Positions 15,948 through 20,000 of a stretch of DNA of 20,000 bases are shown here, one piece after another. Within the stretch, counting starts at the first letter, position 1; each line of letters begins with the position of its first letter. A program made the position numbers and the translations under genes. The notes beneath the pieces were generated by a model. It was given only the letters and a program-made list of their open reading frames with translations, had not been told where the DNA came from and did no database searches. This stretch comes from an uncultured virus (IMG/VR IMGVR_UViG_3300028883_000045) (lineage: Duplodnaviria > Heunggongvirae > Uroviricota > Caudoviricetes), in IMG/VR virus record IMGVR_UViG_3300028883_000045, one strand, 5' to 3'.

Positions 15948-16170
15948 TTCCGTCCTCCCCTGTTACCTGCTTGGTAAACCTGATCGGGGCTTCCTCGGAT
16001 TTGAGGCCCCCCGTGAACCGCAGGACGTGCTCGGACATGCCCTTGAAGGCGCGCTTGCCCATGGAGCATGCTTGATCCCGGGCCCGGCGCCGGGCTTCCT
16101 TCTCGTCTTCGCTGCACGAGTAGGTTACGATGCGGCCGCGCTTGTCGGTCCAGTGAACCGAAACAATCAC
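15919..16170 (-). CDS. Hypothetical protein
   Basis: 83 aa, GTGA overlap with the upstream stop. Confidence 0.55.
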   Translation of the reverse strand: MIVSVHWTDKRGRIVTYSCSEDEKEARRRARDQACSMGKRAFKGMSEHVLRFTGGLKSEEAPIRFTKQVTGEDGNAPENPELQ

Positions 16171-16400
16171 GGGGTCTGGTCCTCGGCATCGTCCTGCAGG
16201 GCCTGGTAGTACTCCTGAACGTCCGGGGGCGCCTCACGTGCGTCGAGCACGCGCGCGATGCTCCCGTCTTCGTCGGACAGGGACTCGCTGCCGCACATCC
16301 CCCGCGCCCAGTTTTCGCGGGCCGCGTCTTCGTCCTCGGCCTCGATCCACCAGTTCTGTTCGATTGCGCGCAGCACCTTAACCTTGTAGAGCTTCGGCAT
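16167..16400 (-). CDS. Small acidic protein (YKVKV...IEAEDEDAA motif; DpnD/PcfM-like)
   Basis: 77 aa from ATG 16400 with AGGAGA RBS. Confidence 0.65.
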   Translation of the reverse strand: MPKLYKVKVLRAIEQNWWIEAEDEDAARENWARGMCGSESLSDEDGSIARVLDAREAPPDVQEYYQALQDDAEDQTP

Positions 16401-16414
16401 GATCTTTTCTCCTG

Positions 16415-16603
16415 TCACGGGCGCCGGCGAGTCCGGCGCCGCCTCTTGGAAGAACTCCAGCGCGCCCGGTCGGCGCGCGACGCGTAACTCCAGGACTCGG
16501 CCCGCCGCGCGGCCCACAGGTCCGGCAGCATTCGCGCGGCCTCGCGCGGGTGGCAGTAGGCCCGGGCGGCGATTTTCTGAGAGAGCTTTCTGGTCTCGAT
16601 CAT
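16415..16603 (-). CDS. Hypothetical protein; 3' part doubtful
   Basis: GGAGGACG RBS and ATGA overlap support the start; the Arg-rich tail looks out of frame. Confidence 0.4.
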   Translation of the reverse strand: MIETRKLSQKIAARAYCHPREAARMLPDLWAARRAESWSYASRADRARWSSSKRRRRTRRRP

Positions 16604-17214
16604 TTCCCGTCCTCCCCCTGCATGAACTCCAGTCCGAAATCTTCGCGATTCACCATGGCCGTCATGACGACCGCCGTCGCGCCGGACTCCCCCTTGATCA
16701 ACAAGGGTCGTGTGTCACATTCTTGGCAGGCGCGGAACCCCAGCCCCTCGAATATTTCCAGCGCCGCGGACAAGTACGAGTGATCGAAGATTGGGAATTT
16801 CTCACGGTCCATGTTAATACGCTTGGAGTAGCGGAGGGTCAGGGCGGCCGCGAGGGCTTCAGGCAAGTGGCAGCGCGCGACCTCGATCCCCATCGACTCC
16901 GGCGGGATCACCGTGCGCCAGTCGGGATACTTCAGCGTGCCCTCGGTGTTCTTCTCCAGCCATAGCACCGTCTTGGTACGCTTGCGGACTTTCCACAGGG
17001 CGGTTTTTCTGAGGGACTCGGGGACCTTGTCAGCCGGAAGCTCGTAGGAGTGCAGGCGCCGCGCGTCGCACCCGACAACGTGTAGCTTCTTGCGCTTGAG
17101 CTCGGTGCGCAGATTTGACAGGGGGTCGCCCCGGGAGTCTCCCTCGCGCACGGCCCCGGATACCCACCGTAGGGCTTCGAACGCAGCGCAGGTTTTGCGG
17201 GTAATCTCGATCAT
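16600..17214 (-). CDS. DNA polymerase III beta-clamp-like protein (short, about two domains)
   Basis: 204 aa from ATG 17214; DSR..L..L...VVGCDARRL, KYPDWRTVIP, FDHSYL..AL, PLLI...AVVM correspond to DnaN motifs (ATDGHRL, G.YP.Y..VIP, FN..YL.D.L, vvMP). Confidence 0.7.
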   Translation of the reverse strand: MIEITRKTCAAFEALRWVSGAVREGDSRGDPLSNLRTELKRKKLHVVGCDARRLHSYELPADKVPESLRKTALWKVRKRTKTVLWLEKNTEGTLKYPDWRTVIPPESMGIEVARCHLPEALAAALTLRYSKRINMDREKFPIFDHSYLSAALEIFEGLGFRACQECDTRPLLIKGESGATAVVMTAMVNREDFGLEFMQGEDGK

Positions 17215-17444
17215 TTCTCGTCCTCCATCTTGGCCATGATTGCGCGGGCTTGTGTCATTTCGTCGCTGTAGTCGATCAGCGTCTTCTCGAGGCACTTGAG
17301 CAAAACCTTGCAGGTTGTCAGCAACTTGTTGCGTTGCCTTTTGACCTTGCACAACTTGCAGACCTCGACCTCGTCGCGGTCGAGCACGATCGAACAGTCG
17401 GTGCAGTAGCGCGAGCTACTGACATATACGTCCTTTGGATTCAC
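17211..17444 (-). CDS. Small zinc-finger/helical protein
   Basis: CTDC...CKLC then LL..CK.LL...ARAIMAK; GTG 17444 with GGAGGACG RBS. Confidence 0.65.
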   Translation of the reverse strand: MNPKDVYVSSSRYCTDCSIVLDRDEVEVCKLCKVKRQRNKLLTTCKVLLKCLEKTLIDYSDEMTQARAIMAKMEDEK

Positions 17445-17497
17445 CTCTCGTCCTCCATCTTGGCGGCCTTGGGCCGCGTCCATCTTCCGGCGTATTA

Positions 17498-17944
17498 CTA
17501 CTCGCCCTTAACTCGGTTCATAACCGCGTGCGTCGTTTCCATTTCGGGATAGACCGCGCGCTCCGCGTCGCCCTCGATCGCCAGGGCATGCTCGCGGGGG
17601 AAATTCGGGTTCAGCTGGCCAGCGTCGATCCACGTGCGGACCTCTGCGGGGGTCCCAAGAAAATTGTAGCAGGCATTCCCGCGCATGACTCCGGTGCGCT
17701 GGTCCGTGTCGGCCAGCACAGGCTGGTCCCATCCCGCGAAAACCGCATCCCGGAAGGGCTTGACCGGCGCGCTGGCGTAGTCCCGGGACTGCAGCCTCAG
17801 GAGGTAGCGCTTGCGCTTGCCCCGAAGGGAGTAAATCGGATTTCCCTCCGGGTCGAAGTCCTTGACAGTGATTTCGCTCCGGCGGGTCATTGCCATCATG
17901 GAATCAATCCGGTAAATCGTGTAGCGCTCGCCAGCCTTGAACAT
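17498..17944 (-). CDS. Hypothetical protein
   Basis: 148 aa, GGAGGACG RBS. Confidence 0.75.
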   Translation of the reverse strand: MFKAGERYTIYRIDSMMAMTRRSEITVKDFDPEGNPIYSLRGKRKRYLLRLQSRDYASAPVKPFRDAVFAGWDQPVLADTDQRTGVMRGNACYNFLGTPAEVRTWIDAGQLNPNFPREHALAIEGDAERAVYPEMETTHAVMNRVKGE

Positions 17945-17946
17945 GT

Positions 17947-18595
17947 TCTCGTCCTCCTTCTGGGCCCCGGAGGGCCTGCCGTTCTTGGGTTCCGCGTGTT
18001 ACGCCACCCGTCCGTCTTCCACAAGCTCGCACATGTCCGCATCGACGGCCGCGCGCGCCTGGGACAACATGTCTTCGCGACCGTAGAAGCCCCAACACGA
18101 ATCTATATCTCGCCCCCGGTGCGTGACCACGTAACCCCACACGTCTCCCCGCAGATACTGGTCGAACGCCTCGACTTCGGAGACCAGACACTTGCGGGCG
18201 GCCTCTTCGTCGTCCCCGAATTCCTTCTTGACCGTCTCGCGGTCCGCGTAGATCCAGCCGACTTGTCCCGAGTCCCAGGGGCAGCGAAAACCGGTTATGT
18301 TCATAGTCAGCCCCGAGTGGTCGTAGAGGTAGAGGGGCAGGACAACCAGGTCGTGCTCCCGGCGGTACTCTTCGAACTCTCCGGGGGAACTGAACTCGTG
18401 TTCGTCTCCCAGCCTATAACGCGAGTGGAAGCAGACCATGGTGCCGAACGTGTCCCACTCTCTGGGCGACTCTCCGCAATCGTCTCGCTCGATGGAAATC
18501 TTGTAGCCGTTATAGTCAATGACGTCCTGCATCTCTCGTCCTCCATCTTGGCCCCGGAGGGCCTGCCGTTCTTGGGTTCCGCGCGTTACGCCACC
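17947..18595. repeat. 62-bp direct repeat pair (17947-18008 and 18534-18595) flanking one gene
   Basis: 3 mismatches in 62 bp; each copy ends in the RBS of the downstream gene. Confidence 0.9.
17999..18532 (-). CDS. Conserved uncharacterised phage/ICE early protein
   Basis: 177 aa from ATG 18532; SPREWD..G, LPLYLYDHSG, WDSGQVGWIY, DQYLRGDVWGY, DSCWGFYG motifs. Confidence 0.8.
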   Translation of the reverse strand: MQDVIDYNGYKISIERDDCGESPREWDTFGTMVCFHSRYRLGDEHEFSSPGEFEEYRREHDLVVLPLYLYDHSGLTMNITGFRCPWDSGQVGWIYADRETVKKEFGDDEEAARKCLVSEVEAFDQYLRGDVWGYVVTHRGRDIDSCWGFYGREDMLSQARAAVDADMCELVEDGRVA

Positions 18596-18644
18596 TGCCC
18601 GGGGCATTACATCCCCGCCGAGGCGGGGGCGGCTCTGCCGGGGC
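18551..18644 (-). ncRNA. Degenerate twister-like RNA (copy 1)
   Basis: GCCCCG-GCA-GAG-CC-[P1 hairpin]-UAA-UGC...CGGCAGGC...CGGGGC; P4 is poor. Confidence 0.3.
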
Positions 18645-18902
18645 TCAGGCCAGTTGATAGTACATCGGCAGGCCCATCGCATCACAGTGGCCCTCTACTG
18701 CCTCGCCGTCGGCCACCATCGCCCGCAGGATCGACTCCTCGGCCTCACTCTCGGGATAGAGCGCATGACTGGCTCCCTCGCCGGTGAGTGCTAGCCGCTC
18801 GACCATGCCGCGGATCTCTGCCGCAGTCGTGCACGGCGCGTGGTGCTCATAGGGCCCGCTGATGTAGCTGGTCATGCTCATGATGCTAGTTTCAAGTTTC
18901 AT
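18645..18902 (-). CDS. Hypothetical 85-aa early protein, copy A
   Basis: ATG 18902 with GGGAGG RBS; 7 aa differences from copy B. Confidence 0.75.
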   Translation of the reverse strand: MKLETSIMSMTSYISGPYEHHAPCTTAAEIRGMVERLALTGEGASHALYPESEAEESILRAMVADGEAVEGHCDAMGLPMYYQLA

Positions 18903-18934
18903 GGTCTCTGCCTCCCTCTCTCTCTGCGGACCAT

Positions 18935-18988
18935 TCCGCGACCCGGGCCGCGTGCCCGGGTTTCGCCGTTTACGGCTCGTCAGACGGA
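18935..18988 (-). ncRNA. Hammerhead ribozyme, type I
   Basis: UCCGU-CUGACGA-GCCG UAAA CGGC-GAAA-CCCGGGC ACGCG GCCCGGG-UC-GCGGA: complete core, three stems, GUC triplet; predicted cut between 18940 and 18939. Confidence 0.9.
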
Positions 18989-19267
18989 CTTGACCGCTTC
19001 GGACTGGAGCTTGGCCGCCCTTGAGGCTATTTCGGCCCTGAGACCGTCCCAGCCGCCGAAATGGCTGCAAATGGCCAGGAGCTCGCGCTTGGCTTCGGCG
19101 AGGGACCGGCCCTTGGAGACGCCGCACCCGCTCGCCTCGTGCGTGATGATGTAAATTCCCCGCTCGTCCCTGCGGTACCAAAGACCGACCCTGCCATTGT
19201 CAAACTTGCGCAACCTGTGCCCCTCGACTTGTGTTTGCCCTTCCGGTGCGGTGATTGTGAATTTCAT
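18980..19267 (-). CDS. Hypothetical early protein
   Basis: 95 aa, AAAGGAG RBS; its UGA stop is part of the hammerhead CUGA. Confidence 0.7.
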   Translation of the reverse strand: MKFTITAPEGQTQVEGHRLRKFDNGRVGLWYRRDERGIYIITHEASGCGVSKGRSLAEAKRELLAICSHFGGWDGLRAEIASRAAKLQSEAVKSV

Positions 19268-19273
19268 GGCGTG

Positions 19274-19324
19274 CTCCTTTCGTCCTCGTTTGGGCTCGTC
19301 AGTGCGGGGACATCCCGCAGAGGG
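19274..19324 (-). ncRNA. Hammerhead ribozyme-like motif, type III topology, degenerate
   Basis: CCCUC-UGCGGG AUGUC CCCGCA-CUGACGA-GCCC AAACGA GGAC-GAAA-GGAG; core intact, stem II has one C-A mismatch, stem III is very short. Confidence 0.5.
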
Positions 19325-19348
19325 TGGGGGATTGCTCCCCCGGTGGTG

Positions 19349-19468
19349 CTAGTCGGTGGCTTTGGCGATGGCTGCCTCGGCTTGCCGTAGGGCATTCTCG
19401 CAACCGGGTCCGATCACAGTCTCATCCAATGCCTGCCACGGTTCCGGCGTGTGCGTGTGCTTGCTCAT
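19349..19468 (-). pseudogene. 39-aa mini-gene, apparently an internally deleted member of the HTPGPW...AAIAKA phage family
   Basis: MSKHTHTPEPW start and AEAAIAKA end without the usual middle section; GGGAGG RBS. Confidence 0.45.
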
Positions 19469-19514
19469 GGTCTCTGCCTCCCTCTCTCCGCCCGGGGCCC
19501 ATCCCCGGACTGCG

Positions 19515-19580
19515 CCCGCCGTGACTTGCCGCACGGCCGGGGCATTACACCCCCGCCGGAGCGGGGGCGGCTCTGCCGGG
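19515..19580 (-). ncRNA. Twister ribozyme-like RNA, P5-type permutation (copy 2)
   Basis: CCCG-GCA-GAG-CC-GCCCCCGC UCCG GCGGGGGU-G-UAA-UGC-CCCGG-CCGUG CGGCAAGU CACGG-CGGG: P1, P2, P4, P5 and the T1 pseudoknot (CGGC/GCCG) pair; T2 is imperfect. Confidence 0.55.
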
Positions 19581-19582
19581 GC

Positions 19583-19840
19583 TCAGGCCAGTTGATAGTA
19601 CATCGGCAGGCCCATCGCATCACAGTGGCCCTCGACTGCCTCGCCGTCGGCCACCATCGCCCGCAGGATAGCCTCCTCGGCCTCACTCTCGGGATAGAGC
19701 GCATGACTGGCTCCCTCGCCGGTGAGTGCTAGCTGCTCGACCATGCCGCGGAGCTCTGCCGCAGTCCTGCACGGCGCGGAGTGCTCATAGGGCCCGCTGA
19801 TGTAGCTGGTCTGACTCATGATGCTGGTTTCGATTTTCAT
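19583..19840 (-). CDS. Hypothetical 85-aa early protein, copy B (first gene after the promoter)
   Basis: ATG 19840 with GAGGGAG RBS. Confidence 0.75.
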   Translation of the reverse strand: MKIETSIMSQTSYISGPYEHSAPCRTAAELRGMVEQLALTGEGASHALYPESEAEEAILRAMVADGEAVEGHCDAMGLPMYYQLA

Positions 19841-19899
19841 TTTGTGCTCCCTCTCTCTCCCTCTCTGCTCTCCTGGGACCGCGCGGTCCCACCATGGAC

Positions 19900-19927
19900 A
19901 GTCTATCACGTGTCCAGGCTGAGTCAA
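19900..19927 (-). promoter_or_regulatory. Sigma70-type early promoter
   Basis: TTGACT (19927-19922), 16 nt, TG-n-TAGACT (19905-19900); AT-rich UP-like tract upstream; hairpin TGGGACCGCGCGGTCCCA (19874-19891) at the predicted transcript 5' end. Confidence 0.7.
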
Positions 19928-20000
19928 GGCCCCTATTGAGATTTTTTGAGAACATTTGACACTCGGAGCCCGTAGAGGCGCCCAAAGCACCGGGCGGGCC

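Follow-up and report, generated by a model that had tools for sequence, protein, structure and literature searches.

Hammerhead ribozymes clustered around single genes of prophages and phages were described by Perreault et al. (2011) (PMC3088659). In the literature on their function, such ribozymes are currently hypothesised to process polycistronic phage mRNA (PMC3088659; PMC6765202), and what hammerheads do in bacteria and phages is still presented as hypothetical (PMC6765202). For HHphage of the haloviruses HF1 and HF2, the account in Perreault et al. places a mapped transcript 5′ end no more than 3 nucleotides from the cleavage site (PMC3088659). Here we analysed a stretch of 20,000 nucleotides from an uncultured virus of the Caudoviricetes (IMG/VR record IMGVR_UViG_3300028883_000045), hereafter the window. 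Its minus strand carries a hammerhead at 18997-18926, between a gene for a 95-amino acid (aa) protein and a gene for an 85-aa protein. Judged by sequence and placement, it belongs with the hammerheads found beside single genes in phages and prophages, an arrangement known since 2011. We propose that it is a genuine type I hammerhead in a polycistronic, early phage-like transcript, and that it most likely, though not certainly, cuts itself between 18940 and 18939 and so unlinks two units of the message.

The window element resembles the phage hammerheads of Perreault et al. in its consensus core, its position between small genes of a phage operon, the proposed processing of mRNA and the presence of other ribozyme motifs nearby. 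The two differ in that the relevant passages of that paper stress type II hammerheads in bacteria, whereas the window hammerhead is type I. Its host is a high-GC uncultured element of marine sediment, a stop codon lies in its CUGA box and the innermost pair of its stem I is a wobble (compared with PMC3088659). HHphage of HF1 and HF2 provides a precedent for an mRNA 5′ end that arises by cutting in vivo (PMC3088659). However, it is a variant hammerhead of an archaeal virus and lies at a transcript start, whereas the window element has a standard core and is internal to an operon. The stem II and core strings were not found in the supplements of Perreault et al., in which the alignment PDF is probably not searchable as continuous text; the class may nonetheless be part of their Dataset S1.

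The hammerhead and the two genes beside it comprise the following parts.

18980-19267, minus strand: open reading frame (ORF) of 95 aa, with ribosome-binding site (RBS) AAAGGAG, upstream of the hammerhead
18997-18994 and 18929-18926, minus strand: distal stem I helix, GCGG with CCGC; GCGG is followed by UC and then AAG
18991-18989, minus strand: AAG, directly 5′ of stem I
18988-18984, minus strand: stem I 5′ strand, UCCGU
18983-18977, minus strand: core box CUGACGA (C3 to A9)
18976-18965, minus strand: stem II, GCCG-UAAA-CGGC, 4 bp with a UAAA loop
18964-18961, minus strand: GAAA; G12 to A14 are 18964-18962 and A15.1 is 18961
18961-18941, minus strand: stem III, ACCCGGGC-ACGCG-GCCCGGGU, 8 bp with an ACGCG loop
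18940, minus strand: C17
between C17 (18940) and G1.1 (18939), minus strand: cleavage site predicted from the hammerhead consensus
18939-18935, minus strand: stem I 3′ strand, GCGGA, 5 bp with UCCGU
18934-18931, minus strand: AUGG, of which AU is 18934-18933
18930-18926, minus strand: UCCGC
18645-18902, minus strand: gene for 85 aa downstream of the hammerhead, Shine-Dalgarno (SD) sequence GGGAGG at 18916-18911 and AUG at 18902; paralogue of 19583-19840

As read from the sequence, 18997-18926 forms a complete type I hammerhead with a distal extension of stem I. Stem I opens to the flanks, stems II and III are capped by loops, and the cut lies 3′ of stem III. All 13 core positions were the consensus nucleotides, including A15.1 (18961) paired with U16.1 (18941), and C17; the core was defined as in the methods of Perreault et al. 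(C3 U4 G5 A6 N7 G8 A9, G12 A13 A14, A15.1-U16.1 and H17; PMC3088659). Stem II is closed by a Watson-Crick pair, G10.1-C11.1 (G18976-C18965), and the 15.1-16.1 pair is likewise Watson-Crick. The minimum free energy (MFE) fold of the 72 nucleotides was the three-way hammerhead junction (-35.8 kcal/mol, z = -1.94), with stem I lengthened by an internal loop and the distal GCGG/CCGC helix. By comparison with relatives, the elements of a putative tertiary contact between stems I and II are also present, namely AAG and AU flanking the 5-bp stem I, and the UAAA loop on the 4-bp stem II. The sequence and the fold thus agree with a first-pass annotation of this DNA, which had reported a full-core hammerhead with paired stems I-III on the coding strand. 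The same annotation called the ribozyme intact. That word fits the core and the three stems, but not the pair beside the cut, because in the innermost pair of stem I (2.1-1.1) U18984 and G18939 form a U·G wobble in place of a Watson-Crick pair.

A strict scan of the window found this single hammerhead. With a relaxed type I descriptor (stem I of at least 4 bp, stem II of at least 3 and stem III of at least 4), one match was obtained in 3000 random 20-kb sequences of the window's first-order composition. As this frequency alone does not exclude chance across the very many windows scanned, we looked for relatives. The 24-nt core plus stem II of the window had exact matches in six viral contigs, and the degenerate pattern CTGANGAGNNGTAAACNNCGAAA (23 nt) found 44 viral-contig loci, 40 of which passed a loose type I test. 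One of the 40 (L015) was removed for spurious long-range pairing, which left 39, and removal of duplicates gave 26 distinct sequences for alignment. RNAalifold recovered stems I and II and the base of stem III. All 13 consensus pairs were unbroken in all 26 sequences and nine of them showed compensatory double changes; in stem II, CG was replaced by UA or AU at two of the four pairs. The alignment also revealed features that had not been part of the search: a near-invariant A followed by A or G 5′ of a 5-bp stem I, an AU on its 3′ side, and GAAAC...GUH. The window has them all (AAG at 18991-18989, AU at 18934-18933, C15.2-G16.2 formed by C18960 and G18942, and a stem I of 5 bp). Its one departure from the alignment is at the outermost pair of stem I, usually C-G, which a compensated change has turned into U-A.

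We built a covariance model, R1, from the 26 distinct viral-contig hammerheads, with the window left out. The window hammerhead aligned with R1 from end to end (positions 1-69) and scored 52.6 bits (E of roughly 5e-13), and the next-best match in the window scored 10.0 bits. It ranked 8th among 89 matches. Four controls that carry the pattern without the stems (L015, L023, L031 and L051) scored 16.3-22.1 bits, and an imperfect hammerhead (L041) scored 45.8 bits. The score is partly circular, since the window's own core and stem II supplied the pattern by which the seeds were found, and about 30 bits of it are owed to parts of the window that played no role in finding the family. Membership of the window hammerhead in this class, marked by AG and AU flanks and a UAAA loop, can be taken as established.

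The class is not confined to viral contigs. In a search of one genome per prokaryote species, CTGANGAGNNGTAAACNNCGAAA occurred at 91 loci, and 69 of the 91 record titles read as metagenome-assembled genomes (MAGs) labelled Saccharibacteria. Type III architecture was seen in 74 of the 91 matches, in which the capped stem I is again 5 bp; AU follows its 5′ strand in 68 of these 74 and AG precedes its 3′ strand in 61. Seven matches in Firmicutes-type genomes were type I and scored 55-80 bits with R1. The type III hammerheads of Saccharibacteria share with the window the 5-bp stem I, the AU and AG flanks, the 4-bp stem II and the UAAA loop, and also show its outermost U-A pair of stem I. They differ from it by circular permutation (stem I capped and stem III open) and by their location in chromosomes of ultrasmall bacteria. 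As AG and AU are kept there with no need of a stop codon, they seem to have a structural role in the RNA, which is presumably a contact with the UAAA loop. The hammerhead module with GNNG-UAAA-CNNC as its stem II was abundant as a type III ribozyme in MAGs of Saccharibacteria and Patescibacteria (L055-L145), with several copies per genome in some of them. ORFs on the opposite strand across the Saccharibacteria hammerheads were dropped as seeming low-complexity artefacts of the stop-to-stop ORF definition. Our literature search retrieved no paper on hammerheads in Saccharibacteria.

The hammerhead of the window overlaps the end of a gene. The UGA at 18982-18980, which forms U4-G5-A6 of the core, is the stop codon of the 95-aa ORF (19267-18980), as the first-pass annotation had stated, and 18991-18984 (AAG and UCCGU) also encode its last codons, Lys-Ser-Val. 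The annotation described the ribozyme as using a stop codon as its catalytic core, and comparison with the relatives did not support this as a special feature. To our knowledge, CUGA is invariant in every hammerhead, so any ORF that enters in that frame must stop there. The hammerhead carries stops in two of the three frames, UGA in the core and UAA in the loop of stem II, and ORFs that run into it therefore terminate. Among the 26 distinct viral relatives, 21 had an ORF of at least 23 codons whose end lay 8-16 nt 5′ of CUGA, often within the U-A-A/G that directly precedes stem I. Five relatives additionally show a frame of 26-50 codons ending at the core UGA, and there was no clear case of the core UGA as a stop among the 26. 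When 1.5-kb flanks were included, it was at -9, and never at the core UGA, that the conserved upstream protein of one lineage terminated (11 of 11 loci). The relatives, like the window element, are placed between a stop codon and the next RBS. It looks as if the core stop is a packing variant, in which the ORF extends into stem I by three codons more than is usual among the relatives, and not a separate device. A literature search for a stop codon inside the core of a phage hammerhead retrieved no paper.

In the lineage just mentioned (L146-L156, large phage contigs), the hammerhead follows a conserved protein of 109-163 aa ending ...DLDVSD[FY]PD[DE]GE...W. Its stop alternates between UAA and UGA at one position, just 5′ of stem I.

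If the window hammerhead is active, the nascent RNA would form stems II and III, and then stem I once GCGGA has emerged. The cut would fall after C18940 and before G18939. GCGGA would then swap partners to the downstream UCCGC, which would leave a 5′-terminal hairpin on a 5′-OH mRNA of the 85-aa gene. The upstream fragment would contain the complete 95-aa ORF with its stop, and would end in the GC-rich body of the ribozyme (stems II and III) with a 2′,3′-cyclic phosphate. One message would be split into units, so that stability and translation of the two would be unlinked. For the cleavage and the fates of the products, we draw on hammerhead chemistry and on the processing hypothesis as it is put in PMC3088659 and PMC6765202. 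The computed fold of the predicted 3′ product contained a 5-bp GCGGA/UCCGC hairpin (18939-18926, centroid -7.7 kcal/mol) followed by an unpaired purine-rich leader with GGGAGG and then the AUG at 18902, which bears out the suggestion of the first-pass annotation that GCGGA-AUGG-UCCGC refolds into a 5-bp hairpin ahead of the next RBS. As that annotation also proposed, the released downstream mRNA might be stabilised. In a 181-nt fold, GCCUC at 19023-19027, in the coding sequence of the 95-aa ORF, was predicted to form 5 bp with GAGGC at 18910-18914 of the downstream SD and to enclose the hammerhead. Were this pairing real, cleavage or upstream translation would free the SD.

Several results weigh against self-cleavage of this element, or against the confidence with which it can be called a ribozyme, in addition to the partial circularity of R1. 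A wobble at 2.1-1.1 was present in none of 102 distinct relatives (30 type I and 72 type III). The conformer with the 3′ hairpin was better than that with stem I by about 1 kcal/mol in contexts of 111 and 181 nt, in which the predicted probability of the stem I pair was 0.05-0.21. Contigs of two other DNA runs were identical to the window over 18904-19388, a segment that therefore offers no variation in which covariation at the hammerhead itself could show. A metagenome scan with the alignment of the 85-aa proteins found four loci, none of which extended to the hammerhead. At Rfam gathering thresholds, no match was found in the window. The best Rfam score, after clan competition, was a forced alignment with Hammerhead_3 (type III), 22 bits against a gathering score of 48.5. 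The first-pass annotation had proposed an Infernal search with hammerhead models as a check, and the outcome is divided, as the Rfam gathering scores were not reached and the dedicated model R1 gave the high score reported above. The Rfam result might be taken to favour coincidence, with the descriptor matched by GC-rich sequence, coding and intergenic, that has no ribozyme ancestry, and at one relaxed motif per 3000 random windows some accidental matches are inevitable over very many windows. However, Rfam also failed on clear relatives. Hammerhead_1, for which gathering is at 34 bits, gave L001 and L005 only 18.5 bits, and was silent on L145 and L129, which R1 scored at 80 and 76 bits; L004, also a clear relative, missed the gathering scores as well, and Hammerhead_3 reached 42.6 and 45.7 bits (gathering 48.5) in two of six Saccharibacteria-type hammerheads tested. 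The failure therefore reflects the coverage of the models more than the element in the window. The window hammerhead has the core of Rfam RF00163, Hammerhead type I (clan CL00010), and its topology, with an open stem I and loops on stems II and III. It differs in falling below gathering, as the model evidently covers the phage class poorly. Rfam thresholds miss a large natural class of hammerheads in its type I and its type III permutation, many Saccharibacteria copies among them. An R1 score about 30 bits above the core-only controls, the class features that were not searched for, the placement exactly between a stop codon and an RBS as in relatives, and a probable twister ribozyme within the same operon all argue against chance, which we consider extremely improbable.

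The wobble and the competing hairpin mean that the element could be a slowed or regulated ribozyme. It may descend from hammerheads but by now cleave slowly or not at all, so that most transcripts stay uncut and the structure serves as a spacer or protects the 3′ end of the 95-aa mRNA. Besides the rarity of the wobble and the preference for the hairpin in longer contexts, the operon already shows decay, with a truncated twister copy and a weak hammerhead-like motif. Perreault et al. mention phage hammerheads that are slow or do not function (PMC3088659), and the rate is most sensitive to mismatches in the innermost pairs of stem I and stem III (PMC8495972). A wobble is not a mismatch, however, and all 13 core positions and the three stems are intact. 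The identical contigs of two further runs show that the sequence is not an assembly error. Energy models omit the loop-loop tertiary contact that favours the active fold. We regard a slow or inactive relic as unlikely. The ribozyme might otherwise be gated by translation, as the first-pass annotation had suggested. A ribosome that reads or terminates at the core UGA would unwind stem I and cover the core, and GCGGA would drop into the 3′ hairpin and block cleavage, so that the RNA is cut only if the 95-aa ORF is untranslated. The geometry suits this idea, as the last three codons are stem I, the stop is U4-G5-A6 and the two conformers are nearly isoenergetic; with an upstream stop no more than 16 nt from the core in 21 of 26 relatives, and in 11 of 11 loci of the one lineage, a terminating ribosome would overlap the ribozyme throughout the class. 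On the other hand, such close abutment is expected of compact phage genomes anyway, the AG and AU flanks are kept in type III relatives as a closed loop, which indicates structural conservation independent of a stop, and a core-UGA stop is not clearly seen among the 26 relatives. Interference between translation and cleavage at the stop is geometrically plausible in such a model, and would apply equally to relatives with a stop 8-16 nt upstream, but we judge gating as such to be improbable here. If it did operate, it would couple mRNA processing to translation status without a protein, and it might cover all phage hammerheads that abut a stop. A further idea is that a cut by the twister (at about 19547/19546) and one by the hammerhead (18940/18939) excise an RNA of about 600 nt with two genes, which an RtcB-type host ligase could circularise. 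Two ribozyme classes do flank the 41-aa and 95-aa ORFs, and Perreault et al. raised spliced or circular products as a possibility, but in their account such products were sought and none were found (PMC3088659). No joints were seen in contigs of the locus, which are DNA contigs only, and excision, as pure conjecture, seems to us highly improbable. Self-cleavage that separates the 95-aa and 85-aa messages is thus the reading we prefer. The locus is a compact test case, with one promoter, small genes, a coding stem I, a stop in the core, a competing hairpin and a probable twister in the same message, and is suited to asking whether translation and self-cleavage interfere.

All genes near the hammerhead lie on the minus strand, and four further features were annotated there.

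19900-19927, minus strand: sigma-70-like promoter, TTGACT-16-TAGACT with a TG extension, heading the operon
19520-19577, minus strand: probable twister (type P5-like), after the first 85-aa gene and about 530 nt upstream of the hammerhead
19273-19327, minus strand: weak type III hammerhead-like motif, CUGACGA...GAAA, 19.5 bits
18583-18639, minus strand: truncated 5′ half of a twister fused to a duplicated module of the 5′ untranslated region (UTR), 10.9 bits, after the second 85-aa paralogue

Apart from this promoter, 16000-20000 had no promoter-like site, and its minus strand was free of terminator-like sites. From the promoter, the order is the first 85-aa gene (19840-19583), the twister-like RNA, a 41-aa ORF, the weak hammerhead-like motif, the 95-aa ORF, the hammerhead, the paralogous 85-aa gene, the truncated twister copy, a 177-aa gene (phrog_6186) and a 148-aa gene. 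The 95-aa ORF had GC contents of 0.57, 0.50 and 0.77 at the three codon positions, like the neighbouring genes, and is therefore probably a real gene. The only homologue found for its protein was itself, and it had no Pfam or PHROG family. The window also contains phage-type replication genes, encoding a SNF2 helicase, VRR-NUC, an AAA ATPase (phrog_8638), DUF3854, DUF4942 and a helix-turn-helix (HTH) protein.

Among the sequencing runs listed for the locus none is an RNA run, and the DNA runs that carry it are labelled marine sediment metagenome. Contigs of three DNA runs were compared at the locus, one of which (X1) had no cover over about 19018-19350. A blastn search with 18300-20000 gave no match in phages. 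The tblastn searches with the 177-aa protein and the AAA ATPase found distant phages only, at below 45% identity and useless for synteny, and no relatives of the 95-aa and 85-aa proteins were found in viral contigs. Among the four loci of the metagenome scan, one (L009) was identical to the window and the other three differed in downstream layout.

Roth et al. (2014) and Weinberg et al. (2015) are said to have found twister ribozymes near hammerheads, and an Rfam family named RAGATH-1-hammerhead exists. The window resembles this association in that a probable twister lies in the same operon as the hammerhead, and differs from it in that the twister scores below gathering and its second copy is truncated. 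The candidate at 19577-19520 scored 26.1 bits with Rfam Twister-P5, for which gathering is at 37.6 bits; in a search of 391 nt, E was 0.0016. UAAUGC and CAAG were present, and in our reading of the alignment the partners of the T2 pseudoknot were changed on both sides (GCC with GGC). In contigs of other sediment runs, P4 had a different sequence with its pairing kept, if the substitutions are grouped as we infer. On these features, 19520-19577 is a probable twister ribozyme. The truncated twister at 18583-18639 looks like a scar of duplication and recombination and is probably inactive.

The motif at 19327-19273 was rejected as a likely ribozyme, as its stem III has only 3 bp, its stem II contains a C·A mismatch and its MFE fold lacks the junction. 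The GAAAGGAG of the motif is an RBS module, found again in L007 and L008 where no core accompanies it, and the GAAA belongs to the SD of the 95-aa gene. The motif is probably due to chance, or a relic.

The module of about 60 nt fused to the truncated twister (hairpin GGCCC-UCCG-GGGCC and an SD) recurs upstream of the 148-aa gene (17945-18009, minus strand), where the copy takes in the final codons of the 177-aa gene. The 5′-UTRs of three genes in the operon (18900-18940, 19475-19520 and 19841-19890, minus strand) are built alike, with a short GC hairpin and, behind it, a leader rich in A and G that reads AGAGAGAGGGAGGCAGAGACC-AUG or nearly so. Two of the three hairpins have an AUGG loop, and the leaders that follow the twister and the hammerhead are nearly identical.

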